64,000 nucleotides of DNA from Patescibacteria group bacterium (GCA_013387215.1 WARW01000001.1:12735-76734); one strand, 5' to 3'. Counted from the first letter of the stretch, positions 27,241 to 55,649 are shown. The notes: generated from the letters alone by a model not told the origin. Numbers and translations: made by a program.

Positions 27241-27440
27241 CGCATCTACCTCCTCAAATTTTTGATTATCAAAGTACAATCTTGTTTAAAATTATTTTTA
27301 GAGATTTTTCTAAAACCTTCTTAAACAGGAATGCCGTATTATACACCAAATTAAAAATAATGATCAAAAAAAAGCCCCGATTTGTATTTATTGTTTTTTA
27401 CAATAAAACCGCGATCGGAGCAGTCAATTTTAAAAGAGAT

Positions 27441-28235
27441 CTAAATGAATTCCTGATTCTGCAAACTTCCTAAAAGTTTATATACTGCCTCCTCGTACAG
27501 GGGATGATCATCACCCAACGTCTTCATTCTGGTAATAAATTCTTGGGTTTCTTCCTCAGTCGGAATTTCACATTTTGTCACATTCCTGTCATATGGAAAA
27601 TAAATTCTATTGGCTGAATCTTCGGTAAGCTTCAAAGCATTTTCCGGGCAGCCCTCAAACTCGACAAGAAATTGTCCCAAAAGTTTGGTTGTTCCTTCAA
27701 CAGGGCCGGGTATTAAAGACTTAATGTAATACAATTCCTGTTGTCCTTCTTGGGCGTTTTTAATATACCCGTAAGCATTTGTGCCTCTGGCGCTCAAAGT
27801 TACTTTAATAATTGCATTGTCTTTTGGTAATTTGACCTCTTCAATCTCTAAACTTTCCTCTGGAGCGCTTCTTTGTTTGTCTACGTCTAAAAGTATTTTT
27901 TCGATTAATTCCTTATACTGGGGATTATATTCTTCCATTGTTTCCATATGGCTCACAAATTCGCCGATTTCCTTTTTTGTTGGTTGGCTGTAAAACTTTA
28001 CTCTGGAATCTCCGGGGAAATAAACTCGATTTGTGCTGCCTGGTGCCAGCTTTAAAGCTAGCTCTGGGCACTCAATAAACTCGTGTAAAAACTGTCCTAA
28101 AAGCATGGTTTCTTGGGTAATCGAACCCTCACGTACTTGGTCAATAAAATAAGCTTCTTTCCGATCCCTCATTGTTAAAACCACCAATGTTCTTTGCTTT
28201 GGTATAAACGGATTTTTCCTTACCATTTTATCCAT
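27441..28235 (-). CDS. Hypothetical protein with two tandem homologous domains
   Basis: LLGQFL.EF..CPE.ALKL....NR.YFP occurs twice; SD AAAGGAG. Confidence 0.75.
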   Translation of the reverse strand: MDKMVRKNPFIPKQRTLVVLTMRDRKEAYFIDQVREGSITQETMLLGQFLHEFIECPELALKLAPGSTNRVYFPGDSRVKFYSQPTKKEIGEFVSHMETMEEYNPQYKELIEKILLDVDKQRSAPEESLEIEEVKLPKDNAIIKVTLSARGTNAYGYIKNAQEGQQELYYIKSLIPGPVEGTTKLLGQFLVEFEGCPENALKLTEDSANRIYFPYDRNVTKCEIPTEEETQEFITRMKTLGDDHPLYEEAVYKLLGSLQNQEFI

Positions 28236-28406
28236 TCAAATATCTCCTTTCATTTTAAAAGTGCTGACCTCAATTTTTGCTTTCAAAAATCGTTTCCTTT
28301 TAAGGAATGCCGTATTATACATCAAAAAAAAGCCCCAAAAACTAATTGTAAAAATACAATTAATTGTTCAGGGCTAATGCTGCAATTAAAAAGAGAAACC
28401 GTTCAA

Positions 28407-28853
28407 TTAAATTAATGACAAAGTTTTATTTTCGCAGTCAATAAGCCAGGCTCTGCCTTTATCAATCATATGCGATTGTAAACCGATGCCGAATTCTTCT
28501 TTGGAAAAATAATAGGGAAATCCTTCCGCAAGTCCGCAATGAGTCACCAACACCAGCACTTCAGTTTCGTTGGCATATTCTCTGACCAGTTTCAGTGTAC
28601 TTGGGAAATCATCTTCAGGGCTTAAGTCCGCCAATAAAGTACTTTTCTCTTCAATATCACATCCGGTAAATAGACCGATAATTAAAGCAGTTTCTTTGGT
28701 TCGGATAGACGGTGAGCAGAGTATCGTTATTTTTTTATCCTGTTCGAGCGCTAATATTTTATCTGCCAGTGCCATAACTTTAAGTTTTCCATCATTGCTC
28801 AAATGTCCATTTTCTTGAAAATCACCATGTCTCGCAACTATTAAATACTTCAT
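28407..28853 (-). CDS. Histidine phosphatase family (SixA-like)
   Basis: RHG, SPSIRT.ETA, LVTH; ATG 28853 after AAAGGAG. Confidence 0.85.
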   Translation of the reverse strand: MKYLIVARHGDFQENGHLSNDGKLKVMALADKILALEQDKKITILCSPSIRTKETALIIGLFTGCDIEEKSTLLADLSPEDDFPSTLKLVREYANETEVLVLVTHCGLAEGFPYYFSKEEFGIGLQSHMIDKGRAWLIDCENKTLSLI

Positions 28854-29041
28854 AACCCATTCTCCTTTCAGTTTTGCCTCTCTTTTTATTGTCAAAGATC
28901 TCTTTCTAATCTAAAAATAATATTTTAGAGTTTTTTCTAAAACTATCTTTAAAAAGATTATCGGTATTATACACCAAATTGTTTGATATTGCCGAGATTA
29001 TAGGATATAATAACGAACTTAAATAAGCTTACACAGCATTT

Positions 29042-30853
29042 ATGTCAAGAAACATTGAGAGTCCAAGTTTCGTACAAATCAAAGAAGCTTTGGCTTGTCC
29101 GCATATTCAAAAAACCGCTCGCCCTATTGGTGTCGACTTGTTTTATTCGGATCTGGAAAGTGCTAAGGAAAGAAGACAGCTTTTGGAAAAAATGAGCCAT
29201 CTTTTTGATCAGATTCCAGACCTAAACATGGATGTCGATACCGCTTTAAAAAATAATTTAATTAGCTCTGAAAACTTATCTAATGTTTATCAGGATTTAT
29301 CTGATTTCATCAGCTCAGATTCCAATCATTCTCGTTTAGCTTTATATCTGCCTTTCCAAATTATTCCCAATTTAAATCCAGACAATTCAAAAAATATAAC
29401 CGAATCTCAGGTTAAATTTGCTAACGTCTATAAAAATGCTTGGATGCAATTGTTGTTTGAAAGTGATATTCGGGCGGATTTTTTAAACGGAGACACATTA
29501 GAACCAGGCCTAGGCGAACCAGCTCGAGTCAGAAAAGCAGCCCATTTAATACCGGAAATTTTAAAAAAGGGAATTATTGATAAAGAAGATATTGACTTAA
29601 TATTAGAAATAAATAAATCAGATGATGAATTATGCCATTCAATTAACGAAGGAGTAATTGCCTACGAGAAATTAAATAAATCAGAAAAATCTGAGGAAAC
29701 TTCAGAAATTTTTGATTTAGATAATTTAAAAAAAGAACTGGCTCTTATTGATAAAAATTACGGACCAAATTCAGAAAATATTTCCAAATTAAGTCTAAAG
29801 GAAAAATACGATTCGCCCAATCTGCTTGATTCAAAAATCAGCCAAGAAAGAGCTGCTTGGATAAGAAGAACTAAATATGGAGAAACTTTAAATAAATATG
29901 CCCAAAAAATTCATAATTTTAATACCATTGATTCTTTATTAGAAGCAGATGAACCAGTCTATAAAATACTTGGCTTAAAAGCGATTTTTAATCAAAATCA
30001 ACCGACTGATATCTTTGATAAATTAATTGAGGAACAGTGGTTGACTGGTAATAATCAAATCAAGGAAGCAATAATTACCGGCCTAAGTTATTGGCAAAAA
30101 AATAATCTAATTTCTTCACATTACCTAGATCGATTCGGAATTAAAATTCCTGATTTATCACAACCGTTTTCAGTTGATTTAGATAAATTAATTTTGTCCG
30201 ACCTTAAAAATATGACAGAGGCTGTAGAAGGAATTAAAAATGAATCAATTCTTTCTGAAAATATTTATCCAACCATATTAGTATTTGGATCAAGAGTCAA
30301 AGGATATTCTGGTCTTGATTCTGATTATGATATCGCTGTCTTTTTTAAACCAAACGCCTTAATTGATAACCGGAATTCAATTCTTCAATCAATCAAAGCG
30401 ATTCCTTCATTAAAAGAAGTAGGGAAGATATGTGAATTTTGGACAACCGAAAATGATGGAAAAATAGGTCTTAGACCAATCTCAGAAAAAGTTTGGGGCA
30501 TGATTGGACCGGAACAAATTCACTTTTTATTTGGAGGTGCTTGGATTGGTGATAAAACCGATATAAATAAAATACAGCAGGATCTTTTGGAAAAATATTG
30601 TGATTTATCAAGATTTGACCATCAAAAAGATTTGGTACGATCTCGCTTGCTGGGTAATTTAGAATACGATATTCTTCAATGCCGTCTTATGCATAAGGGG
30701 TATCGAAAATTTTATCCTGATAAAATTGATCCGAAAATTAAAAGTATAAACGCTATTGATGGAAATAGTGCCTTTTGGGATCCTGGGTTTAGACGAGTGG
30801 CAACGCAACTTTTTTTGAGTAGAGTATTTTTACCTGATTTATCGGGTAAATAA
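29042..30853 (+). CDS. Large protein with Pol-beta-superfamily nucleotidyltransferase domain
   Basis: FGSRVKGY..LDSDYDIAVF motif after a long helical N-terminal region. Confidence 0.7.
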   Translation: MSRNIESPSFVQIKEALACPHIQKTARPIGVDLFYSDLESAKERRQLLEKMSHLFDQIPDLNMDVDTALKNNLISSENLSNVYQDLSDFISSDSNHSRLALYLPFQIIPNLNPDNSKNITESQVKFANVYKNAWMQLLFESDIRADFLNGDTLEPGLGEPARVRKAAHLIPEILKKGIIDKEDIDLILEINKSDDELCHSINEGVIAYEKLNKSEKSEETSEIFDLDNLKKELALIDKNYGPNSENISKLSLKEKYDSPNLLDSKISQERAAWIRRTKYGETLNKYAQKIHNFNTIDSLLEADEPVYKILGLKAIFNQNQPTDIFDKLIEEQWLTGNNQIKEAIITGLSYWQKNNLISSHYLDRFGIKIPDLSQPFSVDLDKLILSDLKNMTEAVEGIKNESILSENIYPTILVFGSRVKGYSGLDSDYDIAVFFKPNALIDNRNSILQSIKAIPSLKEVGKICEFWTTENDGKIGLRPISEKVWGMIGPEQIHFLFGGAWIGDKTDINKIQQDLLEKYCDLSRFDHQKDLVRSRLLGNLEYDILQCRLMHKGYRKFYPDKIDPKIKSINAIDGNSAFWDPGFRRVATQLFLSRVFLPDLSGK

Positions 30854-32290
30854 GTATTCGTATCCTGATCTTATTTTTCTATCTTTTGCTTTTGGTCCCC
30901 ATCCTTCAGCCACTACTGGAATTTGGATCTTTTCTTCAACATAATCCAAAAAAGTATCGACCATTGTTTTGTTATTTTCGGGTTTAAGGGTAGATAAAAT
31001 TGGCTGGCATTGATTAAGTAATTTAGTCAATTGCAGTTGGTGTTTATAATGAGCTTCGTCTTGAGTATTAGGATAAATTTTAATTCCAGTAATGATATCG
31101 TTTTCCATTTCAAAGTAGTCTTCCAAATTAGTATTTTCTCCATTAAATTTATAGCCCTCACAAATCTGCCACTCATTTTTTTGAGATAAAACATCAAGAT
31201 AACTGATCATTAGACCGTCAAAAGATTTCTTTCCGCCGCTAATTTCAACAGCATATTTCATGGCCACAATATCATAATTACCATTTCTAAATTCTCCCAG
31301 CCATTCAGTCCAATTATTGTGAGTTTCCTGAATTGAATCAGTCATTTCTCGATTAAAACTAACCAGTGGGCCGGCTCCATGGCGGGTCATATAGCATCGG
31401 CTAACACCAATTCGGACTATCTCCCCTGAATAATTTTGTTTTTGAAGAGTGCCAAGAATATCTTGAGAAGTTGGATCGATTTGAGTAGTGTGAGGAATAA
31501 AGCCGTACCATGGGTGTAAAAGTGCACCATGAGAAGTTTCGCAGACCACTAAACCTTCTTGTGACAGCATTTCATTTAAATAATTATCGTCAACAATTTT
31601 GAACAAATCGGCAGTGTATTTGAATGATTTGGCAGTTGATCCAACAAAACTTTGATCATAAAGTATTTCCAATTGTTCATATGCTTCTTCCGGCAATTGA
31701 TCTAATCCAAGAATTAGTTTTTGAGCTTGTTGAATTTTATTTTGCCGGATATTTTCTATTTTTTGGCACAAAGTTTCTTCATCATCGCTAAAATCGCCGG
31801 CTCTGATTGTTAGTTGTGGATCTTTTGAATCTTTTATGGCTTCGCCAACCCCCATACCAACTGTTCCTTTCTTGTCTTTACCTCGCATAATTTCGCGAAG
31901 TCGGCTTATAGCCCGGTGAAACGGAGTTATGGAAATACATTCTTTATCGATAGTTATTAAATCGAATGGATTTTTTACTCCCTTTTCTTCAACCTCAATA
32001 GCCTCATTAAAGAGATCAGTCGGGCAGATTACCATGTGTTTTAAGTGAGTTTTAGCGCCGTCAAAAGTACCAGCCCCAAAATGGCTAAACATTTGTTCTC
32101 GCCCATCTTCGGCTGTAATATGGTGTCCGGATTGGCAGCCTCCTGATCGCCAAACAGTATGAGCATTAAGCATTTTAGTAAAAGCTTCAACTGTGTTGCC
32201 TTTGGTTTCTTCGCCAATACCTAAACCAGTAACCACAATGACTTTATTTTTGGGCTTTTCAAAATTAATATTTGAAATTATTTCTTTCAT
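30839..32290 (-). CDS. Divergent adenylosuccinate-synthetase-family ligase (copy 1)
   Basis: GLGIGEETKG, GGCQSGH, GTVGMGVG, TRHGAGP, GWGP; Asp-binding TTGR loop absent. Confidence 0.8.
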   Translation of the reverse strand: MKEIISNINFEKPKNKVIVVTGLGIGEETKGNTVEAFTKMLNAHTVWRSGGCQSGHHITAEDGREQMFSHFGAGTFDGAKTHLKHMVICPTDLFNEAIEVEEKGVKNPFDLITIDKECISITPFHRAISRLREIMRGKDKKGTVGMGVGEAIKDSKDPQLTIRAGDFSDDEETLCQKIENIRQNKIQQAQKLILGLDQLPEEAYEQLEILYDQSFVGSTAKSFKYTADLFKIVDDNYLNEMLSQEGLVVCETSHGALLHPWYGFIPHTTQIDPTSQDILGTLQKQNYSGEIVRIGVSRCYMTRHGAGPLVSFNREMTDSIQETHNNWTEWLGEFRNGNYDIVAMKYAVEISGGKKSFDGLMISYLDVLSQKNEWQICEGYKFNGENTNLEDYFEMENDIITGIKIYPNTQDEAHYKHQLQLTKLLNQCQPILSTLKPENNKTMVDTFLDYVEEKIQIPVVAEGWGPKAKDRKIRSGYEYLFTR

Positions 32291-32291
32291 A

Positions 32292-32342
32292 AACCTTTCG
32301 TCCTTTTGGACTCATCAGTATCGATACGCATCGATAGAGGTT
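32292..32342 (-). ncRNA. Type III hammerhead ribozyme (HH1)
   Basis: AACCU-C, stem I UAUCGAU/AUCGAUA, CUGAUGA, stem II GUCC-AAAA-GGAC, GAA, AGGUU; cleavage predicted after C at 32337. Confidence 0.93.
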
Positions 32343-32404
32343 GAATAGCTAAAAGCCAGTCTTTAAATTAATAAAGATAGCTTTCAGCTATTCTGTAAAG
32401 AGTG

Positions 32405-33556
32405 TTAGAACTTATTCCAATTGATTCCGCTTCCAGGCTGTTCATCCTTTATTGGTTGCTCTACAACAGTAGTTGCATCGTGCCCGATAGGCCAAATGTC
32501 GCGAAGATTGGCGAATTTGTCTCCAGGTTTGGGGATTTTATTATATCCGGGTAACTTCGCCTGGGCGCCAAAAAGCGGTTTTGCAACCTGCAGCCATCCC
32601 CATAGACGATTAACATCGCGTTGTGAAATATGATCATTGGAATTGCCAGCCAGCAAGAATTTGTTTAAACCGTCTTCGGTAGGTTGCAGAGTCTCTGTAA
32701 CATAAATTAGCCCTGCTTGAGCTTCGGCAAGTAGGTCAGGGTCAGGAATTGAAATAACTCTGTCTTCACCTAAATATTGCTGCCACCAGTAGATATTTGA
32801 ATTATTATGGCCAACATTAAGGTAAAACAAATGCCATTTTGATATCAGGCTTTCACAAACCTTTTTCAATGAAACCTTTTCGCTTTGCATGGTATGACCT
32901 AAATATCTTTCAACATCATGTTTGGTTACATACTCCCTGCAATCAGCATCAGCACCTAAGAAGAAATAACCTTTAAGACCGTAGTTTATAATGTCGACTT
33001 CTGTCTGATTATCGACATACCACAAACCAAGTTGATAATCTTCTGTCCAATCATCGCCATCTTTATCGGGAACCAATAACTCAACATGTTCAACGGCGCG
33101 ATTATCAGATTCAAATTCGGCCATTTGGAATGGAGGGTGGTCATCTTTTACATCCTGCAGAACGGCAACGGACAGATCTATTTGATATCTATCCTGTAAT
33201 TCTGACAGCATACAATAGACCTTCCCCATTGCCTTAAGAGCAAGTGCTACTTTTTCGCCCATTGAACCGGTTCCGTCTGTTCCTAAGATAGTCGGTAATT
33301 TAATACCTTTTGCCAATATATATATTTTTTTTCCAGCCTCATCCAACAGCACCATCGCGTTACGAGAAAGACGTTTAACACCAAAAATATTAACATTTTG
33401 ATGTAATTTGCCAGTTTTTTTGAAAACTTCATGACCTTTCTCATGAACAGTTTCGGTAAATCTCACCCCTTTCGTTGTTGCTCTTTCTTCCATTTTTCTA
33501 ACGGTTTCTACATGCTTCACTGCATTAAAAGTAGAGGTATCTTGCTTCCTTGCCAT
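32405..33556 (-). CDS. VWA-domain protein (copy 1)
   Basis: MIDAS-like DGTGS, PFQMAEFES, EDYQL, KGYFFLGAD; aligns with 38215-39762. Confidence 0.75.
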   Translation of the reverse strand: MARKQDTSTFNAVKHVETVRKMEERATTKGVRFTETVHEKGHEVFKKTGKLHQNVNIFGVKRLSRNAMVLLDEAGKKIYILAKGIKLPTILGTDGTGSMGEKVALALKAMGKVYCMLSELQDRYQIDLSVAVLQDVKDDHPPFQMAEFESDNRAVEHVELLVPDKDGDDWTEDYQLGLWYVDNQTEVDIINYGLKGYFFLGADADCREYVTKHDVERYLGHTMQSEKVSLKKVCESLISKWHLFYLNVGHNNSNIYWWQQYLGEDRVISIPDPDLLAEAQAGLIYVTETLQPTEDGLNKFLLAGNSNDHISQRDVNRLWGWLQVAKPLFGAQAKLPGYNKIPKPGDKFANLRDIWPIGHDATTVVEQPIKDEQPGSGINWNKF

Positions 33557-33587
33557 TTAAATCAACCCTTTCTTTTTTTAATTTTTT

Positions 33588-34553
33588 TTACCTTGGATAC
33601 GTCCGAAATTCATGAAATTGTCTTTTTAACCCTTTTCCATCCCAAGTCGGTTCTTTTGGCCAAATTTCATCAGATAGTTTGTAAAGATCATCAAACTCCT
33701 CCCCAGCAGCTTTAGCATCACCATCCATAATTCTTCGTAAGAAAGAAACATACTTATCGTAAGCATCTTTACTCATAATTTCCGAATCATAAGGCGGATT
33801 TGATTTTTCAGTGCCTCCGGCTGCTTCCCAGGCTATTTTTGCCGCTGCCACAACTTCTCGAATCTTATCGGCATAACTCGGATCTCCCTTAGTATTGGAA
33901 AAATCCAGTATAAATACTCCATGAAGTGCAGTTTCGACAAGTTCATTGTCGGCATTAACCAATCCAACCGTTAAATCAAAACTGTGGACAAAATACAGCA
34001 ACTTCAAAAGTTTTCCAAATATCCATTGGACACTTTTCAAATCAACCCTTTCCGTTGCTGTTATTACCGATAGTGGTGTTAATTGTTTATAAGAATTTAT
34101 ATTCTCGTGGTATCCCAAAAACAAAGCTGTTCTGTCTCCGGCGTCAATTTTTTCAATTAACTTCGGAAACATCGATCCGTAAAATGCTGGAGTTTCGTTT
34201 TTGCTTATCGCTTCCTGATCTAGTTCATGAGCAATTCGTTGAAGCTTTTTGAGCGTTAATGCTTCATTGTTAAGAACATTATTGCGCTCACTGCTGTTAA
34301 CGATTTTCATTAATCCGAATTGACTTGATGGTAATTTTGCTGCATAAACTCTAAATACGCTTGTTTGGGCTATTGGTAATGGATTTGGGTTATCTCCGGA
34401 TTTTAAACCGAAAATTTCATACTGGCCATTCAATCCATCGTAAAAACCCATGCTGATTAAATTAGATTCAGCTGGATTTTCACTTGGAACTAATAAGGCG
34501 ACATTTAACACTAAATCCGTTAGCCATCCTGTTGAAGAATCATTTTTTGGCAT
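33588..34553 (-). CDS. Protein-kinase-fold protein lacking HRD catalytic Asp (copy 1)
   Basis: LMKI, NEA..L, VQWIFGKLL, VGLVNADN, ILDFS. Confidence 0.65.
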   Translation of the reverse strand: MPKNDSSTGWLTDLVLNVALLVPSENPAESNLISMGFYDGLNGQYEIFGLKSGDNPNPLPIAQTSVFRVYAAKLPSSQFGLMKIVNSSERNNVLNNEALTLKKLQRIAHELDQEAISKNETPAFYGSMFPKLIEKIDAGDRTALFLGYHENINSYKQLTPLSVITATERVDLKSVQWIFGKLLKLLYFVHSFDLTVGLVNADNELVETALHGVFILDFSNTKGDPSYADKIREVVAAAKIAWEAAGGTEKSNPPYDSEIMSKDAYDKYVSFLRRIMDGDAKAAGEEFDDLYKLSDEIWPKEPTWDGKGLKRQFHEFRTYPR

Positions 34554-34556
34554 TTT

Positions 34557-34754
34557 TCACACCCCTCTCATTAATTCATTCATAAAATATTTCTTAACGT
34601 TTTTTCGTTCTCTAAAGTATTCATGGATGTAGCTTCTTTCTTTAACTTTAAACTCCTTTCTCACCTGACTGATGTCTGACTCTTCAGAAACAGGTAATAA
34701 TGAAGCAAAACATAAAACTAATCCAGTCAGCCATTCCTCAGGTGTTTTTCTCAT
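34557..34754 (-). CDS. Small 65-aa protein sharing N-terminal motif with the kinase-fold proteins
   Basis: SD GAAAGGGTG; EEWLTGLVL resembles TGWLTDLVL and QSWLTGVVL. Confidence 0.75.
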   Translation of the reverse strand: MRKTPEEWLTGLVLCFASLLPVSEESDISQVRKEFKVKERSYIHEYFRERKNVKKYFMNELMRGV

Positions 34755-34786
34755 TCCGATTCACCCTTTCTATTACTAACACTTTA

Positions 34787-34798
34787 TTGTTAAAGAAC
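34787..34798 (-). promoter_or_regulatory. boxA-like antitermination motif
   Basis: GTTCTTTAACAA preceded by a hairpin; one of about 10 similar leader motifs in the window. Confidence 0.6.
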
Positions 34799-34847
34799 TT
34801 TTAATAAGATCATGACCGCTTTGACCAAGATCTTACCCAGATATCAT

Positions 34848-34908
34848 CCCAAATTCCTTTCGTCCTTTTGGACTCATCAGTATCGATACACATCGACAGA
34901 GGATTGGG
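34848..34908 (-). ncRNA. Type III hammerhead ribozyme (HH2)
   Basis: UCCU-C, stem I UGUCGAU/AUCGAUA, CUGAUGA, GUCC-AAAA-GGAC, GAA, AGGA; cleavage predicted after C at 34899. Confidence 0.93.
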
Positions 34909-34975
34909 GGAGTTTGTTTTTTTTATTGAGTATTGATACTCAAAACAAACTCCGCCCGGGACTATCATTTGATTT

Positions 34976-35395
34976 TTAGATTCTAATCCGTGAATCAGCA
35001 GGCCTGATGCCTTTTTGGTAAACCAATTGCATTAGTACCTTTAGTTGCGGACCAAAATCCTTTTTCAGATCTTCAGGCATAGTATTAAGAAACTGGTAGT
35101 CATCCTTGAAAAGAAAGCTAGATAAACTAGTCAATTCCGGATTTTTTTCAACCAGACTCAAATATGCCTCCCTGGTGGCGGTTGTAAACACTTCTTTGGG
35201 AGCACAGGCACGCAGGGTTAAGATGTGAACAGGTTTCATCGTATTCCAACCAGTCTTATGTTCGGAAAACATGTTGGCATCCATACGTTCTGCATTCTCA
35301 AATAACCAAGTGGCAACTTTGGAAACATCTTCCTCTTGAATTATCCTCAGATAATCCCTCAGGAAATCATTACTTGCGAAAGGAATTGCCTCCAG
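34976..35395 (-). CDS. Hypothetical protein, start uncertain (possible CTG)
   Basis: Protein-like helical frame filling the gap; AAGGAGG 9 nt before in-frame CTG at 35395. Confidence 0.55.
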   Translation of the reverse strand: MEAIPFASNDFLRDYLRIIQEEDVSKVATWLFENAERMDANMFSEHKTGWNTMKPVHILTLRACAPKEVFTTATREAYLSLVEKNPELTSLSSFLFKDDYQFLNTMPEDLKKDFGPQLKVLMQLVYQKGIRPADSRIRI

Positions 35396-36488
35396 CGGGT
35401 CGGTCCTCCTTAGACAGTTTTTCCCATGGAATCGATGTACCGAGTTGTAACAGGGCAGCAAGATATGCATATTCATATTGGCCAGCTGTTACTTTCGGAT
35501 ATTCCATAATGGACAAAGCATACCTGGTGATACTACGCTCCATTCTGACATAATCAGCTGAAACATTCACATCAAGCATTTTGAGCATCTGTTCTTTGTT
35601 GGCGGCGCCAATTTGAGCTGGTAGGGCTGAATTTTCCAAAACCTCTTTGATTCTGTTGGCATCCAATGCTAAAGCCCTGGCAATCACGATACCTGTGCCG
35701 GCAAAAACCTTGTTGATCTTATCAATCACACCTTCAGCTCCATCGCGCAATGCGCTTGTATCGGGTGGCTGCTGCATCATACCTGCTGGCATTCCTGCTT
35801 GGCCTCCTGTTGCATAAATAGCAAGAGCCATCATTGCTGTAGGAGCTACTCCTTGCTGGTACGAATTAACCCATGACACAACCTGCTGGTTGTACTCGTA
35901 GAGTGCTGGCCAGAGATTCGTCCTGAGTTTATTGAGCAACGCGTCTTTCTTTCCCTGGGTTACGCTGGCACTGTCGATGTCGAGAGCCTGGAAGATTTCT
36001 GCATAATTACGTTTGGTAACCAGTTTCTGCAGCTTGTAGAAATCTTCTCCGCACGGTTCTTCCTGTTCTTCGGCAAATTTTTCCATCCGGTCCATAATGA
36101 TTTTGGGCAATTCGTAAAGACCGCTTTTGTCTGCCAATGTTGCCCTGATGGCTGCAATAATTTCAGTTATGCCGATTTTCAGCTCTCCACCTATTTTCAG
36201 CATGGCTAAAAATGAGGTATCGTCCGGAACCTGTGGCAGAACGTCCATTGACGGTTGAGCTGCTGCTGTTGCAGTTGCTTCAATTTTCGGTTTTTCCTCC
36301 TCTTTGGGTTTGAATGCTGCCGCAATTTTTTTTGCTACCACAGCACCGCATCCGGCATAAGATTTGATCTCGTCGGCTGACAATAAAACCATGTCCGCTT
36401 CAGTCATTACCCCTTCAGTTTCCAGTTTTGCAATTTGGTCTTCTTTAAGTCCGAGCTCGGTTAGCCTCAGTTTCAATGTTTCTTCCAT
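35370..36488 (-). CDS. Hypothetical protein with N-terminal SAM/HhH-like domain
   Basis: LTELGL..QIAKLE.EGV..EADMVLLS.DEI..G.G.V.AKKI pattern, linker, helical domain; ATG after GAAGGGAG; visibly more GC-rich than flanks. Confidence 0.7.
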   Translation of the reverse strand: MEETLKLRLTELGLKEDQIAKLETEGVMTEADMVLLSADEIKSYAGCGAVVAKKIAAAFKPKEEEKPKIEATATAAAQPSMDVLPQVPDDTSFLAMLKIGGELKIGITEIIAAIRATLADKSGLYELPKIIMDRMEKFAEEQEEPCGEDFYKLQKLVTKRNYAEIFQALDIDSASVTQGKKDALLNKLRTNLWPALYEYNQQVVSWVNSYQQGVAPTAMMALAIYATGGQAGMPAGMMQQPPDTSALRDGAEGVIDKINKVFAGTGIVIARALALDANRIKEVLENSALPAQIGAANKEQMLKMLDVNVSADYVRMERSITRYALSIMEYPKVTAGQYEYAYLAALLQLGTSIPWEKLSKEDRPAGGNSFRK

Positions 36489-36670
36489 AACAAAATCTCC
36501 CTTCATCTTTGAAATCACCACTATACAGTCATATCCATATTTATGACTAATGGCTTGCTGGACACAAATTTTGTACCCAAAAAGCCACTAGTCATTTATA
36601 TTCAAATGATAGTCTTTGTAAAAATTTTTTTCTTTCACCAGCTTTTGGTGTAAATCAAAAAATCCTTACT

Positions 36671-36724
36671 TTGTTAAAGTGCAAATTTAGCCTATAGCTT
36701 AGCACAAGGGATTGCTGTAGTCAA
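36671..36724 (-). promoter_or_regulatory. Sigma70 promoter and boxA-like motif of operon copy 1
   Basis: TTGACT-17-TAAGCT with TG extension, followed by GCACTTTAACAA. Confidence 0.65.
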
Positions 36725-36806
36725 TCAAAAATTATTGATCATTACCGTAATATTTTTCGTAATCATAAAATATAATCATAAACTTATAATAATTAAAATT
36801 TTTACC

Positions 36807-36865
36807 AAAAAAAACCTCAATTTAGAAATTAATTAGCATTCGCTAAAAAATTTCACCATTGAGGT
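36807..36865 (-). terminator. Intrinsic terminator of operon copy 2
   Basis: ACCTCAAT...ATTGAGGT long hairpin followed by U-tract. Confidence 0.65.
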
Positions 36866-36866
36866 A

Positions 36867-38213
36867 TTAAATATCAATCGAAATCTTTTGATCTCGATCA
36901 GGGCCAACTGAAATTAAACCGATAGGAACGCCTAATTGTCCCTCGATATACTCCAGTAAGCTTCTAGTTTTAGAAGGTAAGTCTAAATAATTTTTGATAT
37001 TTGAAATATCATCTTCCCATCCTGGAAGGGTAGTGTAGACAGGCTGGCAGTTCCAAAGCAATTTCGACATTACTTCATCCTGCTTTTGCAGTTTCACTCC
37101 TACAATCTGATTATTGGGCCCGAAATCAAAGTATTTGTTTAAGGTTTCTTCGCTCTCTTTGCCGATATATCGGTAAGAATTTGCAAATTTGATTTCTTTT
37201 AAACCAGACATTTTGTCCAAGCAGGACACTACCAGTTTGTCGATTCTTTTGTTCACTTGAAGCGAATATCTAAGCAGTACAAAATCTAGCCAGCCTTGTC
37301 TGACAAATCTTTGCCAAGGAGTATAAACGTTATGAGTTTCTTCCAGATTTAAGTTTTCATCTACTGTTGGAAATGGTCCTGCCCCATGTCGGACACTGTA
37401 TGGTCTTAATAATCCTAGTATAACCGCTTCTTTTTCTCCAAGAAGTTCCAATGCATTAGCTATGGATGTCCTAGTCTGGGTGATATTTGGTTTAAAACCA
37501 TAATCGCAATCCAAAATTGTGCCCTGAGCTGCCTCAAAAATATTATTTTGAGTTTGGATTATCTTTTGTATTTCTTCATCACTTAAAATACCCACCCTTT
37601 TGGTAAGTTCCAAATAAATTTTAGCCAATCCTTTTGGTGAGTACATTTCAAACTCTTCTAAAAGTATTTTTGTTTCTTCGTTACTGGCTAGCTGTTCTAT
37701 CTGGTCAAGTTTTAACATCTTTAGTGTTTTTAGCTTGTATTCCAGATCAGGTCTCAACAGATCTTTCGCTCTAATACTAAATGCAGGATTTGTCCTTTCA
37801 TCTATAACCGTTTCTCCAACACCTCTTCCGCAAGTTCCTTTTTTGGTTGTTCTTAGTATTTCTTTTATCTTTCCGCAGATTATTTGGTAGGGGGTAATTA
37901 CTAAAGAGTTTTCTGATATCAATAATTTTTCAAATGGATCAGAAATACCCTTAGTTTCTAGTTTTTCTCCCTCTACCAAAATTCCGATTGGATCAATCAA
38001 AGTAAACTTTGAAATTATAGTTTTTAAACCAACAAAGGTTCCGGATCCGAATTGGGAAAAGGTGTGGTGGATCCCACTCGACACCACATTGTGAGCACAC
38101 TGAGATCCACCGCAATATCTGACCACATTTCCTCCATATTTTGAGGCTAAAAAATCAACCATTGATCCTTTACATTCGTCACCTTTATCTAGGCCCACAG
38201 TTATCCAATCCAT
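36867..38213 (-). CDS. Divergent adenylosuccinate-synthetase-family ligase (copy 2)
   Basis: GLDKGDECKG, GGSQCAHN, GTCGRGVG, EAAQG, VRHGAGPFPT, GWLD, ISVGPDR. Confidence 0.85.
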   Translation of the reverse strand: MDWITVGLDKGDECKGSMVDFLASKYGGNVVRYCGGSQCAHNVVSSGIHHTFSQFGSGTFVGLKTIISKFTLIDPIGILVEGEKLETKGISDPFEKLLISENSLVITPYQIICGKIKEILRTTKKGTCGRGVGETVIDERTNPAFSIRAKDLLRPDLEYKLKTLKMLKLDQIEQLASNEETKILLEEFEMYSPKGLAKIYLELTKRVGILSDEEIQKIIQTQNNIFEAAQGTILDCDYGFKPNITQTRTSIANALELLGEKEAVILGLLRPYSVRHGAGPFPTVDENLNLEETHNVYTPWQRFVRQGWLDFVLLRYSLQVNKRIDKLVVSCLDKMSGLKEIKFANSYRYIGKESEETLNKYFDFGPNNQIVGVKLQKQDEVMSKLLWNCQPVYTTLPGWEDDISNIKNYLDLPSKTRSLLEYIEGQLGVPIGLISVGPDRDQKISIDI

Positions 38214-38214
38214 C

Positions 38215-39762
38215 TTAAAGTCTCCTTGTCTTTGACCCTGTTGTCTTGTTTACAGGTTTATTGTCGGGCATTTTCATATCGACTGTAATTTCTGGCACCA
38301 AACTATTGTCCAGTGGCCTTAAAGCAGTTTCGATGTCATTTTGCCGTTCTATGGTTTGATCTCTATCACGCATATCCTTGATGTAGTCTGACAATTCTCG
38401 GCCTCCGTATCTTGCCAAAACTCCGATAATCAAATCAACAATTCCTTTTGGATCTTTCAATCTTAAAACATGATCCTCGGGAATTACCGATGACCATTGC
38501 GCCACGATCACGTCGTCTTGGTAGTTAGCATATTTATCCTTTGTTTCCGTTATTCTTTGTTCTGGATCATAATCAAACTCCAGAATTAGTATATTACTGT
38601 TTTCCCTTGTCTTATAAGCTGGCATTACCTTTTCAAAATGCTGTATTTCACCATTGATTTCAACTTCCACAGTAAACTGTGTTTCTATACTTTCTGATTG
38701 GTGAAAAGCATAGTTTTGAACATACACTTTATAGTGTCCTTTTCTGGCTCTGCCTTTTTCCCATCTGATATTTTCCACAGGTTTTGTTGTTTCCCCGTGC
38801 ACATTCATATCTACATCCAAAAAACCTCCACACGGAGCCTTTTTGTTCTCACTTGGATAGTAAATATGAAAACCAGATGGGGTAATCACATGTAAGTCCA
38901 AGTCATTGGTGTTGTGCCAAATCAGTGAAACCCTAATATCGACTCCCTCATACAAGCCCCCGGCTCTTTCGACTCTCTTTTTGATCTCATTATCAATATC
39001 AGTTTTTCTTTTTTCCCATGTTTTTTGCGGGAAAATAAAGAATACTTCATATTTATCCTGAAGATCAGCAAAAACTTTCTTTGAGTCTAGGTCTTCGGGA
39101 ATATCATCGCCGATTATTCTTTTGACTTCATCTTTCGATACTTTGTCATAAAATCCTTCATCGCCAATGAAAAAAAGATAACCTTTTTCTCCGCGGTCAT
39201 TAGCCTCCAACGTTGAGTGATAAGCATAAAAATAACCCATCAATTCATAGGATTCTTGCCCGGTGCCGCCGCCGCCTTTTTCTGGCCACATGCATGAAAG
39301 CACTTCATCAATTTTGTCGTCATAATAAAATTTGCCGACTTGAATTGGTGCTTTGTCAAACTTAGCGTCGCCCAAACCAGCAAAACTAATCACTGGATTA
39401 AGAACGTAGCCCTTCATATTTATTTGGCCAATGAGCATTGGGACTTTTTTGTCGATTATTTCAATATCCTTTCCGCGTGAATCGGTAAAATCTGAAACCA
39501 CTACGATTGGTGTTACTTTTGCTGCTATGTTACGGATAAAATCCAAACACTGTCGAAATGCATTTTTTGGATCAAGACTAGCATGAACCACTCTTTCTTT
39601 TGTAGCATTTTTACCCACCACATCATATTGATATTCTGTATTCACACTGCTTGTTCCCACGCTTCTTTCGTAAAAAACCATATCAGATGGTCCATCGCCG
39701 TCTCCGCCTCCCATTAAAAATGGTGCCAAAAAAGCACAACGCAGTATTCTTAAAAATTTCAT
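38215..39762 (-). CDS. VWA-domain protein with inserted YfaP/DUF2135-like domain (copy 2)
   Basis: DFTDS, GGGGTGQESYEL, KGYLFFIGDE; insert VSLIW..NDLDLHV..PSG..GG.LDVD..PVENI. Confidence 0.8.
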   Translation of the reverse strand: MKFLRILRCAFLAPFLMGGGDGDGPSDMVFYERSVGTSSVNTEYQYDVVGKNATKERVVHASLDPKNAFRQCLDFIRNIAAKVTPIVVVSDFTDSRGKDIEIIDKKVPMLIGQINMKGYVLNPVISFAGLGDAKFDKAPIQVGKFYYDDKIDEVLSCMWPEKGGGGTGQESYELMGYFYAYHSTLEANDRGEKGYLFFIGDEGFYDKVSKDEVKRIIGDDIPEDLDSKKVFADLQDKYEVFFIFPQKTWEKRKTDIDNEIKKRVERAGGLYEGVDIRVSLIWHNTNDLDLHVITPSGFHIYYPSENKKAPCGGFLDVDMNVHGETTKPVENIRWEKGRARKGHYKVYVQNYAFHQSESIETQFTVEVEINGEIQHFEKVMPAYKTRENSNILILEFDYDPEQRITETKDKYANYQDDVIVAQWSSVIPEDHVLRLKDPKGIVDLIIGVLARYGGRELSDYIKDMRDRDQTIERQNDIETALRPLDNSLVPEITVDMKMPDNKPVNKTTGSKTRRL

Positions 39763-39785
39763 TTTAAAAACCCCTTTCCTTATTC

Positions 39786-40694: not shown

Positions 40695-40713
40695 TTTTAT
40701 CACCCTTTCTTTA

Positions 40714-41319
40714 TTAATCAGTTTCGATTTTGATATCAAACTTTTGCTTTTCTATACACAGCTTTTGAGCAATTTCCACCTGGTCGTAAAAATTCTTTTT
40801 TATTATTTTTTCATTCATCCCAAATTCTTCTACATCCCTTTTAATCCTCCTTTCCAATCTCGTTTTTGAACTCGCCGACATAAAAATATTTACTTTTTGC
40901 TCAAGATTTCCAATAGCTTCGCTGATCATTGAAGCATATAATCCTTCAACGATAATGTATTTTTGGGAAACTATCGCTTTTGTACCTACTCTCATGTTTG
41001 TTCTAATATCGTAATCAGGAAACATAACTTCTTTTTCTACTGAAAGTTTTTTGATATAACCTTTCATTTCTTCAATATGATAAGAGCTTGGCATATCAAA
41101 CGATCGATAACCGCTTATTATTGGCAAAGAATTATCGTTTTTGTTTTTAAAGCAATCATCCATTTCTACAACCACACTCTCATCATTCAAAAACTCTTTA
41201 AGTAATTTAGCTAAATATGTTTTGCCTGAACAACTGCCGCCGCTGATAAAAATAAAATAGGGGAAAACTGAAGCCTCTTTAATTTTGCTTATTAACCAAT
41301 CTACATTCAAATCAATCAC
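40714..41319 (-). CDS. Uridine kinase-like P-loop kinase
   Basis: GGSCSGKT, MDD, FDMP, IIVEG, RLERRIKRD. Confidence 0.82.
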   Translation of the reverse strand: MIDLNVDWLISKIKEASVFPYFIFISGGSCSGKTYLAKLLKEFLNDESVVVEMDDCFKNKNDNSLPIISGYRSFDMPSSYHIEEMKGYIKKLSVEKEVMFPDYDIRTNMRVGTKAIVSQKYIIVEGLYASMISEAIGNLEQKVNIFMSASSKTRLERRIKRDVEEFGMNEKIIKKNFYDQVEIAQKLCIEKQKFDIKIETD

Positions 41320-41468
41320 TTCCTTTCTAAAATTAGTTTTTAAAGTGCTGTCATCATAAAATCTTGCGATTTTTACAATGCGACCGATTGTAACATTTAC
41401 AAGCTAATTCCTCAAAGTTTTGGCTTATTTATCTTGGAAATTAAATTTAGTCTCACTCAAAGCTGGAT

Positions 41469-41939: not shown

Positions 41940-42061
41940 AACTTTATTTTACCTTAACTTTCTACGCATCTATCGACTCAATTGATCTGAATGATCATAT
42001 ATGATACATTACTTCACTCGCATGGTTGTGAGAATTTGCACCTTAAAAAGGAGAAAGACGC

Positions 42062-43120
42062 ATGAATAAATTGTTTGATTTTGAAGCGCATCCGCAAGCT
42101 GCTTGGCTAACCACCAACAGAGATTGTGATGCCAGGTGTCCACATTGTTATGCCCAAGGAACTCATTATGATCCTGCTGATGATATGACTATCGAAACTG
42201 CCAAATCACTTCTGGCTTTACTTGTTAGTATCGACATAAAGCTTGTCACTACTTTAGGAGGAGAGCCGCTGCTTTGGAAGCCGTTGTTGGAATTCAATCG
42301 GATTGCCAAAAGCTTGGGTATTACTACCAAAATGGCAACAAATGCATTTCGTTTTGGTGATAATGAATTTTGGCAAAGATATCTAAAAAATCCTTGTGAT
42401 TCCGTCGGTATCTCTATCAAAGGAGTCGGCGCCGAAATGCTCAAAAGATTGGCTAATGTCACAGATTATGAAAAAGCTGAAAAAGGTATTAAACGAGCCA
42501 TGAATTTTTACAAAAATGGCGTTGGTACGGTTTTTAGCAGCTTGATGACTCTCGACGACCTGTGGAAAATTGCCGAAACTACCCACGAATGGGGAGCAAA
42601 AACATTTTCCATTGGATTTGCCTGTGCCACTTTGGACTCAGAAGGTTGCCCTTCGAAGAAAAACTATATGATTAAGCTCGACAAAATCGAGGAGTTCATC
42701 CAAGTATACGAAAGAATCGATGAGCTTTTTGAAGGCAGTGTTGGTTTTGAACCCCAGCTTCCGTTTTGTTTATTCAGGGAAGATTTTATTGATAAGTTGA
42801 TTGATAAGGGTCAGCTGTCGAATGGTTGTTTTGTCAACAGCCGCGGCGGATTTACCTTCGATAAAGATGGTAATGTTTTGATCTGCAACTCGATTTATCA
42901 TGAACCTATCGGAAGAATCGGCAAAGATTTCACCGATGGCTCCACCCTGATTAATCATCTTAATAGTGAACCTATCAAAGATATTTTCAGGGAGCTTTTG
43001 CGTTATCCGTCCGATGTTTGCCTGGCCTGCCGCTACAACAAATACTGTCGTGGAGGCTGTGTTATCAATTGGACTGCTTTAACGCCAGACATATTACAGC
43101 CTGTTTTAAAGGAGGTGTAA
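42062..43120 (+). CDS. Radical SAM/SPASM-domain peptide maturase
   Basis: CDARCPHC, GGEP, SPASM cysteines GC..DGNVLIC..CLACRYNKYCRGGC. Confidence 0.9.
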   Translation: MNKLFDFEAHPQAAWLTTNRDCDARCPHCYAQGTHYDPADDMTIETAKSLLALLVSIDIKLVTTLGGEPLLWKPLLEFNRIAKSLGITTKMATNAFRFGDNEFWQRYLKNPCDSVGISIKGVGAEMLKRLANVTDYEKAEKGIKRAMNFYKNGVGTVFSSLMTLDDLWKIAETTHEWGAKTFSIGFACATLDSEGCPSKKNYMIKLDKIEEFIQVYERIDELFEGSVGFEPQLPFCLFREDFIDKLIDKGQLSNGCFVNSRGGFTFDKDGNVLICNSIYHEPIGRIGKDFTDGSTLINHLNSEPIKDIFRELLRYPSDVCLACRYNKYCRGGCVINWTALTPDILQPVLKEV

Positions 43121-43122
43121 TC

Positions 43123-43368
43123 ATGGATAAATTTTTAAACAGTTTAAACAAAATTGGTTCGAAAGAAACCGAACCTGTCCAACCCTTATCTCCAACCTGT
43201 GCCAAATCCCATTGCGCTTGTGAACATTGCGAATGTCAATGTCAGTGTCAATGCCAATGCAGCCCGAGTCAAAAAGATATCGAAGATATTGTCAAAAAAA
43301 CAGTCAAAGAAGTTAGTAAGGAACAGAAAAAAGACAATAATAACGATAACAACGATAACAACAAATGA
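43123..43368 (+). CDS. Cys-rich putative RiPP precursor peptide (81 aa)
   Basis: ATG after AAGGAGGT; core CAKSHCACEHCECQCQCQCQC (9 Cys); directly after the rSAM gene. Confidence 0.8.
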   Translation: MDKFLNSLNKIGSKETEPVQPLSPTCAKSHCACEHCECQCQCQCQCSPSQKDIEDIVKKTVKEVSKEQKKDNNNDNNDNNK

Positions 43369-43380
43369 ATTACGGGCCCA

Positions 43381-43416
43381 CCCGCTGAATCTATGAGACC
43401 AGCGGGTTTTTTTTTT
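43381..43416 (+). terminator. Intrinsic terminator
   Basis: CCCGCTG...CAGCGGG plus T10. Confidence 0.85.
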
Positions 43417-48412: not shown

Positions 48413-48507
48413 TAAAACATCAAAGCGATGTTAATTCGAAAGATAATCAACCGTTTATAAATATACGTACCTTGAAAAATGAAAATTATTTAATGGAGGT
48501 GATTTAA

Positions 48508-49068
48508 GTGGATAAATACATGGAAATGAAGGAACTAATATTATTGATTGATCCGCCTAACCGTTTTATTTGTTATCAAATTTTTCTTGATAACGAAACA
48601 CTTTTTAAACAGGCGCAAGGCTCTACTCATCTTCATCAAGCTTGGATGGGTGGCTATTATGATCATGTTTGCGAAGTTATGAACATCGCGGTGGTTCAAT
48701 ATGCCGGCTTATCAAGATTAAGACCTTTACCTTTTACCTTACCCGATGCACTTCTGGTGTTATTCTTTCACGATATCGAAAAACCATGGAAATATAAACT
48801 TGTCGACGGTCAAATTCAACAAGTCGAGGAACTAAAAGACAAAAAAGCTCAGCGCGAATATCGTGACAGAAAACTAAAAGAATATGGAATAATTTTGACT
48901 CCAGCACAGCTTAATGGTCTAGAATACACAGAAGGGGAACTTCATAACTATAGTAATACCCAAAGAACGATGAATGGGCTTGCCGCTTTTTGCCATACCT
49001 GCGATGTCATATCAGCACGTATTTGGTACGATTATCCTAAACGTGACTCTTGGCTTAACGCTAAATAA
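48508..49068 (+). CDS. HD-domain phosphohydrolase
   Basis: HQAWMGGYYDH, FHDIEK, CDVIS; SD GGAGGTG. Confidence 0.82.
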   Translation: MDKYMEMKELILLIDPPNRFICYQIFLDNETLFKQAQGSTHLHQAWMGGYYDHVCEVMNIAVVQYAGLSRLRPLPFTLPDALLVLFFHDIEKPWKYKLVDGQIQQVEELKDKKAQREYRDRKLKEYGIILTPAQLNGLEYTEGELHNYSNTQRTMNGLAAFCHTCDVISARIWYDYPKRDSWLNAK

Positions 49069-49177
49069 TTTTCGTTTTGTACTTTTACAATTCGGGGTCA
49101 TGAAATAGCTAAATTACATAACTACCGTCGACTTAGTTAGATTTGTCGAAAATGTATTAATGAAAGGAAGAGATTTC

Positions 49178-49564
49178 ATGATTAAATTTAAAATTTTTCT
49201 CAAAAAAATTTCCAGGATTTTACTCCAAACCCTAATTATTTTAATTGTAATTGGAGTTATTTGCGGCACTTATTATGTCGTCTTTCCACGTTGCTATGAA
49301 ACTCCAACGACAATCGTTGGGATAATTGATGATCGAGTCATCAACGAACCCAACAAAGACCTCATGATAATAATTTTTACGCCGGAAAATAATACTGTAG
49401 CTCTAAAAAACAACGATGCATCAGGACAAGATAAAAAATATCAGCAAAATAATTACAAAGAAATTTCTCAACTGGAAGTTGGTAAAACTTACGTTTTTAA
49501 AGTTTTCCGTTCTTTCAAAACTAAGGAGCTTCGCATCATTGATTATTCTTTAGCCTTTAAATAA
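49178..49564 (+). CDS. Membrane-anchored hypothetical protein
   Basis: N-terminal TM, small beta domain; ATG 49178 after GAAAGGAAG. Confidence 0.65.
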   Translation: MIKFKIFLKKISRILLQTLIILIVIGVICGTYYVVFPRCYETPTTIVGIIDDRVINEPNKDLMIIIFTPENNTVALKNNDASGQDKKYQQNNYKEISQLEVGKTYVFKVFRSFKTKELRIIDYSLAFK

Positions 49565-54957: not shown

Positions 54958-55050
54958 GTTAATAAAGTCGTAAATGTTAAAAAATTCATTCCTTTTTTAA
55001 TTATATAATTAGCTTTAATATTTGATAAAATAAGCTTACTTTGAAAATCT

Positions 55051-55121
55051 GACGCGGTAGTCAAGCGGTTAGACAGCGGTCTGCAAAACCGTATAGATGG
55101 GTTCAACTCCCATCCGCGTCT
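55051..55121 (+). tRNA. tRNA-Cys(GCA)
   Basis: GACGCGG acceptor, GCGGT-CTGCAAA-ACCGT, U discriminator. Confidence 0.93.
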
Positions 55122-55126
55122 CAAAT

Positions 55127-55516
55127 TTATTTAGTCCAAATTTCTCCGACCCTTCCATATTCTTTTCTGGCAGGCCACACCTTGCCCACTTCTTGCCTAA
55201 TAGCTCCTCCTAATACTCTTGCCTCTGGTTTAACTTCTGCCCTAGAAACAAGTTCAGAAAATATTTCAAAAAAATCTTTTTCTATTTTTTCGTTGATTTC
55301 CCAATTTTCTCCCGTAAAAAATTTAATGTCTCCAGTCGGATCAATCACTCCTCTTAATTCTTTTTCAATAAAATCTTTTGCTTTATTTTCAGAAAATCCG
55401 AAATCTAAAAGCCAATCAAAATGACAGCCGCCATAGCCGCGATCAGCTAATACCAACTTTTTATCAATCATAAAAAACATTCTTCTGGCTTGATGATATG
55501 CTTTTTCTTTATTCAT
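55127..55516 (-). CDS. Hypothetical protein
   Basis: 129-aa ORF with TATAAT 9 nt upstream. Confidence 0.65.
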   Translation of the reverse strand: MNKEKAYHQARRMFFMIDKKLVLADRGYGGCHFDWLLDFGFSENKAKDFIEKELRGVIDPTGDIKFFTGENWEINEKIEKDFFEIFSELVSRAEVKPEARVLGGAIRQEVGKVWPARKEYGRVGEIWTK

Positions 55517-55649
55517 TCGTTGCTAATTATACATTATAAAATCTATCTATTGATTTAATATACTTCTGTACTATAATCCCGATAGTTAGAGCAATTCAAC
55601 GCTGCGTTGATTTATTTGCACTTTCCAAATTTGAAAGGAGTTGTTCGTT

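Follow-up and report, generated by a model that had tools for sequence, protein, structure and literature searches.

The leaders of ten accessory transcription units in a 64,000-nucleotide stretch of DNA from a small-genome soil bacterium of the candidate phyla radiation (CPR), a Patescibacteria group bacterium (GCA_013387215.1, WARW01000001.1:12735-76734; G000:C1:12735-76734 in our numbering, hereafter the window) contain a 12-mer that resembles boxA, the element of ribosomal RNA (rRNA) leaders. On balance, we take this 12-mer to be the lineage's own rRNA-leader boxA, reused on some 40 accessory units and acting through NusB and ribosomal protein S10. Because the layout of the leaders is the same as that of the rRNA genes, about 40 mostly orphan, lineage-specific units are likely to be transcribed by an rRNA-type, Nus-modified polymerase.

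The window is part of a 1.31-Mb genome (23 contigs, 34% G+C), and its DNA is also present in three DNA soil-metagenome runs from a single study; no RNA run is listed for it. Positions are those of the window unless a contig (C) is named. Genes were called with a simple in-house open-reading-frame script that used Shine-Dalgarno (SD) strength in the choice of start; both the calls and the starts are crude, and rRNA genes are absent from the gene list. SD strength is the pairing energy to the organism's own 16S tail, with -6 kcal/mol or lower counted as strong, and an orphan is a gene without a Pfam family at E 1e-4. Matches to boxA are counted relative to GYTCTTTAANA, the pattern searched in gamma-proteobacteria (PMC5725501).

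An earlier note on the window, made from its sequence, had listed ten 12-mers in 5' leaders, always on the sense strand, and all ten are present at those positions and strands. Their -10 boxes, hairpins and SD sequences were inspected by eye.

27266..27277, minus strand: boxA-like 12-mer GTACTTTGATAA in the leader of a 147-aa orphan gene (26797-27240); promoter-like sequence at 27367-27338, hairpin at ~27296-27315, SD GAGGAGG (-12.9), ATG at 27240
28253..28264, minus strand: GCACTTTTAAAA before a 264-aa orphan gene (27441-28235); TATAAT 49 nt upstream, two hairpins in 28271-28307, SD AAAGGAG (-9.0), matrix score 18.8
28889..28900, minus strand: GATCTTTGACAA before a His_Phos_1-like 148-aa gene (28407-28853); promoter-like sequence at 28995-28966, hairpin at 28922-28943, leader paralogous to that of 27266
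34787..34798, minus strand: GTTCTTTAACAA, an exact GYTCTTTAANA match heading a four-gene operon (34754 down to 30839) with a PurA-like last gene; hairpin at 34803-34837, SD GAAAGGGTG
36671..36682, minus strand: GCACTTTAACAA, ~150 nt before a 378-383-aa orphan gene (35370-36521); nearly on a TATAGG -10-like box, no preceding hairpin, weak SD
41337..41348, minus strand: GCACTTTAAAAA heading a four-gene operon (41319 down to 36867; uridine-kinase-like, Ser/Thr protein kinase, 515-aa orphan, PurA-like); promoter-like sequence at 41415-41387, hairpin at 41350-41384
42038..42049, plus strand: GCACCTTAAAAA, abutting the SD (GGAGA) of a radical-SAM gene (42062-43120); hairpin at 42017-42032
48467..48478, plus strand: GTACCTTGAAAA before a 186-aa orphan gene (48508-49068) that sits inserted between iPGM and enolase; strong SD GGAGGTGAT, no hairpin
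49079..49090, plus strand: GTACTTTTACAA between 48508-49068 and 49160-49564, two genes of one unit; no promoter, hairpin or SD seen
55618..55629, plus strand: GCACTTTCCAAA before a 75-78-aa orphan gene with two transmembrane segments (55641/55650-55877), followed by thymidine kinase; TATAAT at 55572-55577, hairpin at 55596-55610, SD GAAAGGAG

Genome-wide enrichment and orientation

The degenerate pattern G-N-W-C-Y-T-T-N-M-M-A-A catches nine of the ten sites (27266, with T at position 10, is missed). Within the window alone its count is marginal, with 13 matches versus 6.83 expected and three of 100 shuffles reaching 13. Four of the 13 (15109, 33678, 46996 and 49509) resemble chance occurrences within coding sequence; the match at 15109 is scored as non-coding but is probably coding, a caveat of the gene calls. 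Over the whole genome there are 154 matches, 57 of them non-coding by the in-house calls. Of these 57, 48 face a downstream gene on the same strand, eight do not and one is at a contig end; with a baseline share of 0.578, 48 versus 8 gives a binomial p of 6.6e-6. One of the eight is the 16S leader itself, which is counted there because rRNA is absent from the gene list. The upstream regions (up to 200 nt) hold 35 sense and 9 antisense matches, while 1000 column-permuted patterns give a mean of 2.9 and a maximum of 15 in the same regions, none reaching 35. It is through placement and genome-wide counts, and not through the window count, that the enrichment is real.

An iterated matrix flags 43 of 932 upstream regions, with the consensus T-T-t-G-[TC]-[AT]-C-T-T-T-[AT]-A-[AC]-A-A; its threshold of 13.5 is also passed by eight antisense regions. 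The box has an invariant G and an invariant C within A/T-rich sequence and is asymmetric and non-palindromic. Enrichment of exact 7-mers in the leaders returned SD-like words and coding contamination from the crude calls and did not recover the degenerate box. A promoter scan gave no overall enrichment relative to shuffles (41 versus 56), and just three single promoter sites upstream of boxes are cited from it.

Anatomy of the leaders

The usual order in the 43 leaders is a TATAAT-like -10 box, 27-55 nt that include a hairpin, a short T-rich linker, the box, and then the SD and start. The distance from the box to the start ranges from 12 to 195 nt, whereas that from the -10 box, where one is seen, is 27-55 nt; the box keeps its place relative to the promoter rather than the start codon. 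In the 40 nt upstream of the box, folding is better than in controls, which were shuffles and matched stretches from other leaders (mean z of -1.51 versus -0.15, Mann-Whitney p 1.7e-8; 42 sites, 139 controls), and the box itself is unpaired more often than the stretch that precedes it (0.59 versus 0.38). This layout is read from the sequence, in which the box has the sense-strand, promoter-proximal placement expected of an element in a transcribed leader (48 versus 8 and 35 versus 9).

The claim that most of the ten sites have a hairpin before and a strong SD after holds: the full layout is found in seven of ten (27266, 28253, 28889, 34787, 41337, 42038 and 55618), with a TATAAT-like -10 box 27-60 nt upstream and the hairpin between it and the box, and the SD energy is -6 kcal/mol or lower in seven of ten, with 41337 borderline (-5.9) and 36671 and 49079 failing. 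At 36671 and 48467 the box lies nearly on the -10 box and lacks the hairpin, and 49079 is inter-cistronic. The boxes at 34787 and 49079 were counted as second, mid-operon boxes, comparable to those of rRNA operon spacers. The box was also considered as the -35 element of a downstream promoter; this was ruled out because the SD and start are often within 12-40 nt of the box, which leaves no space.

The fixed position relative to the promoter would also suit a DNA operator for a global repressor or nucleoid protein acting just downstream of accessory promoters, and accessory genes, the class that the box marks, are often silenced. We consider an operator very unlikely, since the box lacks the symmetry of a palindrome, is strictly oriented in both counts (48 versus 8, 35 versus 9) and is carried by rRNA leaders, which are improbable silencer targets.

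Likeness to rRNA leaders

The leader of the organism's own 16S gene contains, in order, TATAAT, a hairpin (CTGTTCA...TGAACAG) and GATCTTTAAAAA, and that of its 23S gene, which follows a transfer RNA (tRNA), contains a hairpin and then GATCATTAACAA. Seven of eight 16S leaders from the genus have a placeable 5' end, and all seven have TATAAT, a conserved hairpin structure and the box; the eighth (L067) is without the anchor motif and was not placed. The boxes of these 16S leaders read GTAC, GTTC, GATC or GAAC followed by TTT-W-AAA-W, and their hairpin stems co-vary by eye. The 23S leader of congener G017 contains GTTCTTTAACAA, the same 12-mer as site 34787. The rRNA boxes of the genus thus cover the same variants as the messenger RNA (mRNA) boxes, and the description of the 12-mer as boxA-like is borne out by the same box in the lineage's own 16S and 23S leaders. 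Two further leaders, L032 and L048, were rejected as 16S leaders: Rfam finds no rRNA there and Nudix-like genes follow. The 16S (C1:98506-100008) and 23S (C5:7302-10272) genes are unlinked, on separate contigs; the 16S gene is followed by a terminator-like hairpin, and the 23S gene is preceded by a tRNA with anticodon TGC and has its own hairpin and box.

Of the matrix sites (n = 43), ten agree with GYTCTTTAANA in full; one position deviates in 13, two in 19 and three in a single site. The ten window sites have 0, 1, 1, 2, 2, 2, 2, 2, 3 and 3 mismatches, and the boxes of the own 16S and 23S genes have 1 and 2, respectively. Exact matches within 250 nt of starts number 12 on the sense strand and two on the antisense strand.

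Genes behind the box and their SD sequences

Outside the window, 33 of the 46 genes led by a pattern or matrix match are without a Pfam family, compared with 32 of 128 genes without a box in six randomly drawn 20-kb regions (Fisher p 3.7e-8); within those regions all three box-led genes are without a family. The box-led genes with a family encode GH17, leucine-rich-repeat (LRR), PP2C, permease, VanW, epimerase, DsbD-like and class II tRNA-synthetase-core proteins. Those of the window are orphans, a radical-SAM enzyme, a histidine-phosphatase-like protein and the two kinase/PurA-like operons. No box precedes the core genes that were examined (ribosomal-protein, chaperonin and glycolysis genes), nor ClpB, iPGM, enolase, GroES/EL, transketolase, aldolase and others. 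The proposal of a distinct, overwhelmingly accessory or orphan transcript class is thus upheld by the share of familyless genes and the boxless core. A search of 40 relatives at E 1e-20 did not recover the radical-SAM gene, in support of the accessory status of that gene. The DNA of window 26000-43400 has no match in 29 of 30 congeners, and the tRNA and core stretch from 43449 onwards is matched in most of the 30. Many box-led products are small membrane or secreted proteins, and the G+C content of the box-led genes is slightly higher (0.365 versus 0.345, p 0.007).

A strong SD is found before 15% of genes with short spacers, 38% of the others and 10% of internal ATGs; in the main ribosomal-protein cluster (C15:210399-226179) it precedes five of 27 genes. 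Box-led genes differ sharply, with 35 of 43 having a strong SD, compared with eight of 32 boxless orphans and 22 of 96 Pfam-family genes (Fisher p 1.3e-6). The comparison with the boxless orphans means that the SD goes with the box and not merely with orphan status, and the suspected co-occurrence of motif and strong SD is real. The converse fails, as the majority of strong-SD genes are boxless. The suggestion in the earlier note that these mRNAs are poorly translated in this cell squares badly with their strong SDs.

Leaders in which a hairpin and an SD stabilise the mRNA are described in Gram-positive bacteria. In such a leader the A/U-rich 12-mer could be a landing pad for the ribosome or S1, or an enhancer, with a compositional or convergent likeness to boxA. 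The strong SD so often behind the box, frequently within 12-40 nt, and the hairpin near the predicted 5' end of the transcript would agree with this, and the mostly SD-less core (5/27 in the ribosomal-protein cluster) places the box-led genes clearly on another initiation route. We nevertheless think this explanation unlikely: the box-to-start distance varies over 12-195 nt and the promoter distance is narrow, the invariant G and C are unexpected in a simple A/U-rich pad, and the box also occurs in the untranslated 16S and 23S leaders. Five core strings of the box were searched for a complement in the 16S rRNA, and a single 7-mer complement, at position 223, was found; because the 16S otherwise has no core complement, a translation enhancer that pairs with the 16S was rejected.

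Nus factors and the anti-SD

The genome encodes NusB, which is homologous to NusB proteins of known structure, among them those of NusB-NusE-boxA entries, as well as NusA and Rho; S10 (rpsJ) was read directly between tuf and rplC. NusG has a single gene (C11:40161-40472) in a secE-nusG-rplK locus. PF02357 has only this match in the genome, with no second NusG-family gene, and because of this a system of the RfaH/LoaP type, with a NusG paralogue, was rejected.

The 3' end of the organism's own 16S rRNA has the canonical anti-SD GGATCACCTCCTTT, and most genes are without an SD although the anti-SD is canonical. Loss of the anti-SD is described for some Parcubacteria (PMC9297842). The earlier note speculated that the mRNAs are formatted for the ribosomes of another organism, such as the host of an epibiont. 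We give this practically no credence. Its only support is an SD-led class unlike the mostly SD-less core, and the idea fails because the anti-SD is canonical and the box is the organism's own rRNA signal, with NusB, S10, NusG and NusA all encoded. The products, moreover, include membrane and secreted proteins with ordinary signal-like N-termini, and we know of no export route for mRNA.

Hammerhead-like ribozymes

Six matches to the hammerhead type III family RF00008 were found genome-wide (27-45 bits, E 7.8e-9 to 6.5e-4), all under the gathering score of 48.5, with the core CUGAUGAG...CGAAA and the helices visible.

34858..34900, minus strand: hammerhead type III-like ribozyme, ~60 nt upstream of the 34787 box (RF00008, 27.3 bits, E 0.001, under the gathering score; core intact)
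32296..32338, minus strand: second hammerhead-like ribozyme, in the same operon as the 34787 box; the ATG (32290) of the PurA-like gene comes 3 nt after the end of the ribozyme's closing stem
C15:180869-180924, C15:181594-181649, C11:11593-11647 (minus strand) and C11:16836-16889: the other hammerhead-like matches of the genome

All six are inside or adjoin box-led units, and in four of the six a box and an SD-led small gene lie 59-205 nt downstream. The two short ribozyme islands of the window are 88-100% identical in many congeners, some of which have several copies.

Hammerhead-like ribozymes in or beside box-led units in six of six cases suggest heavily processed RNAs. Some other factor peculiar to the lineage, perhaps an RNA chaperone or a nuclease of RNA processing, might then use the box as its RNA site and act on rRNA precursors and on these mRNAs. 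The departure of the mRNA consensus from the E. coli-derived pattern at position 3 and the missing SuhB (below) lean the same way. We give such a factor a rather small chance: no candidate for it was identified, and NusB, which according to PMC13753749 has no reported role besides boxA binding with S10, is kept in a reduced genome.

Proposed mechanism and points against it

In our reading, the 12-mer, within the first 25-60 nt of some 40 accessory units, is a boxA that likely recruits NusB-S10 to the polymerase. After promoter escape, the 5' hairpin would leave the polymerase first, followed by the single-stranded box. NusB-S10 would bind the nascent box and, with NusG and NusA, would form an rRNA-type, Rho-resistant elongation complex, in which the 5' end of the RNA would be kept on the elongating polymerase. 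Accessory units with long leaders, inter-cistronic gaps and self-cleaving ribozymes would in this way be transcribed to their end rather than being silenced by Rho, and ribosomes would be recruited by the strong SD, without recourse to the SD-less route of the core genes. Rho silences foreign or weakly coupled transcripts, and the boxA may therefore exempt accessory genes from it. The alternative outcome would be a suhB-like repression of translation at the boxA. If NusB-S10 does act at the box, protection from termination would probably be the outcome rather than repression; antitermination agrees with where the box lies relative to the promoter, with the hairpin and the mid-operon boxes, and with the factors that the genome has kept.

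Several observations weigh against the box being a boxA of this kind. The organism's own rRNA boxes score 7.5 and 8.4 on the mRNA-trained matrix, for which the threshold is 13.5; both have A at position 2, a rarity among the mRNA sites, and in the 23S box position 5 is A as well. Twenty of the 43 sites miss GYTCTTTAANA by two or more, and at position 3, where that pattern calls for T, 60% of sites have A. None of 46 leaders of tRNA and transfer-messenger RNA (tmRNA) passes the matrix threshold, and the variant reported before tRNA-Cys (55036) lacks the invariant G and is not supported. SuhB/IMPase was not found (no PF00459 match in a genome that is 98.6% complete). Boxes were looked for upstream of nusB, rpsJ-tuf and rho and none was found; there is thus no sign of autoregulation of the gamma-proteobacterial type, and Nus autoregulation via the box was rejected. 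Many box-led units consist of one short gene with a strong SD, to which Rho is no obvious threat, and the genes and start codons rest on a crude in-house caller. Lastly, most relatives show far less enrichment or none: the pattern/reversed-control counts are 43/15 in this genome, 23/15, 9/9, 8/11, 18/9 and 9/9 in five congeners, and 4/7, 14/5, 3/7, 7/3 and 8/1 in five genomes of the same order.

Some matches in relatives (L049, L057 and L058) do show the full layout with an SD. In two congeners, the leader of a syntenic gene has the -35 and -10 boxes and a fully conserved 27-nt block around the box, with diverged hairpin sequence between them. MAFFT misaligned the box in the G000 and G010 leaders (that of G010 is without a hairpin), and this pair was compared by eye. 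The counts in relatives and the conserved leaders together indicate a device that is common to the lineage and much expanded in this larger genome. The genome sizes listed for the 30-40 sampled congeners are 0.4-1.0 Mb, so that the present genome, at 1.31 Mb, has much extra DNA.

Other features of the window and the genome

The leaders of 27266, 28253 and 28889 (window 26797-28900, minus strand) share near-identical promoter and 5' sequence (GTGTATAATAC...), which looks like local duplication of a leader before unrelated orphan genes. Outside the window, at C1:169081, C1:176034 and C1:184869, there are paralogous leaders with a promoter, hairpin, box and second box-like GATCTTTTGAA; the genes behind them encode a GH17-like protein, an LRR protein and a small membrane protein, so that one leader has been copied to genes without relation to each other.

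PurA-like genes end both four-gene operons (30839-34754 and 36867-41319, minus strand; E 5.8e-47 and 1.3e-73), and a matching island occurs only in congener G010, with 64-68% DNA identity. These operons possibly form an unusual module for nucleotide modification or defence. Next to tRNA genes, on the left side of the window (2255-5319, plus strand), there are a DnaG-like primase, with CHC2 zinc finger and Toprim, and a large serine recombinase; this region may be the edge of an integrated element.

Discussion

BoxA and the Nus factors belong to the classical machinery of rRNA synthesis. BoxA on mRNAs is known as well, but with no more than a handful of targets in each genome. Gamma-proteobacterial genomes have 0-7 putative sites for GYTCTTTAANA (Baniulyte et al., 2017; PMC5725501), and the same paper expects 'only a few regulatory targets' per species, often genes for Nus factors. 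Our search of the literature on boxA in Patescibacteria and on SD sequences in CPR bacteria, in which the supplements of the cited papers were not opened, gave no account of boxA leaders on CPR mRNAs; the papers listed for boxA in Patescibacteria deal with other subjects, such as the microbiomes of water and wastewater.

The closest parallel is antitermination in rRNA leaders and spacers. The parts have the same order here (promoter, hairpin, box), the box is the same as in the own and genus 16S/23S leaders, two units have a second, mid-operon box, and NusB, S10, NusG, NusA and Rho are encoded. The difference is that the leaders here precede ~43 SD-led, protein-coding accessory genes; in addition, the E. 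coli complex also includes SuhB and S4, and SuhB was not found. For the rrn operons of B. subtilis, a small hairpin at the 5' end and, behind it, a boxA-like element bound by NusB are described (PMC13753749), a layout that fits our reading. The same source mentions boxA ahead of CRISPR arrays. The CRISPR transcripts, again not rRNA, are shielded from Rho by the boxA of their leader; they are untranslated RNAs, whereas the present transcripts are SD-led mRNAs.

In E. coli suhB, translation is repressed by the Nus complex that assembles at boxA, with more termination by Rho as a result, and the boxA effect is kept when the spacing between boxA and SD is lengthened by up to 100 bp (PMC5725501). 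There boxA lies, as the boxA-like box does here, shortly upstream of an SD, and the tolerance described for suhB fits the variable spacing in our set. The present leaders differ in number (43, with 12 sense matches to the exact pattern) and in their genes, which are nearly all orphans and include none of nusB, rpsJ and rho. The outcome at suhB is repression, whereas for the present leaders we favour protection from termination, with putative binding of their box by NusB-S10.

A functional analogy can be drawn with RfaH/ops and LoaP, in which operons gained by horizontal transfer attract a specialised NusG paralogue through an element in their leader. Likewise, a short leader element marks accessory operons here and would give resistance to termination. 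There is, however, one NusG-family gene in this genome, and as the element is identical to the rRNA box, the general Nus factors are likelier readers than a NusG paralogue.

The layout of promoter, hairpin, box and SD offers a handle for recognizing real small orphan genes and true starts in CPR genomes, and the leaders are ready-made for expression work in organisms that have not yet been grown or engineered. We hold it possible, though on the unlikely side, that the cell has two expression routes, one for an SD-less, boxless core and one for an rRNA-like accessory set with hairpin and boxA, mid-operon boxes, hammerhead cutting and strong SDs. In that case, the expression of accessory genes would be coupled to the supply of free Nus factors, and hence to ribosome synthesis; newly acquired genes would be shielded from silencing by Rho, and the Nus regulon would be an order of magnitude above any described. 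The pattern suggests that processive antitermination may serve as a general 'licence' for accessory genes, and that CPR bacteria may split core from accessory expression in both transcription and translation.

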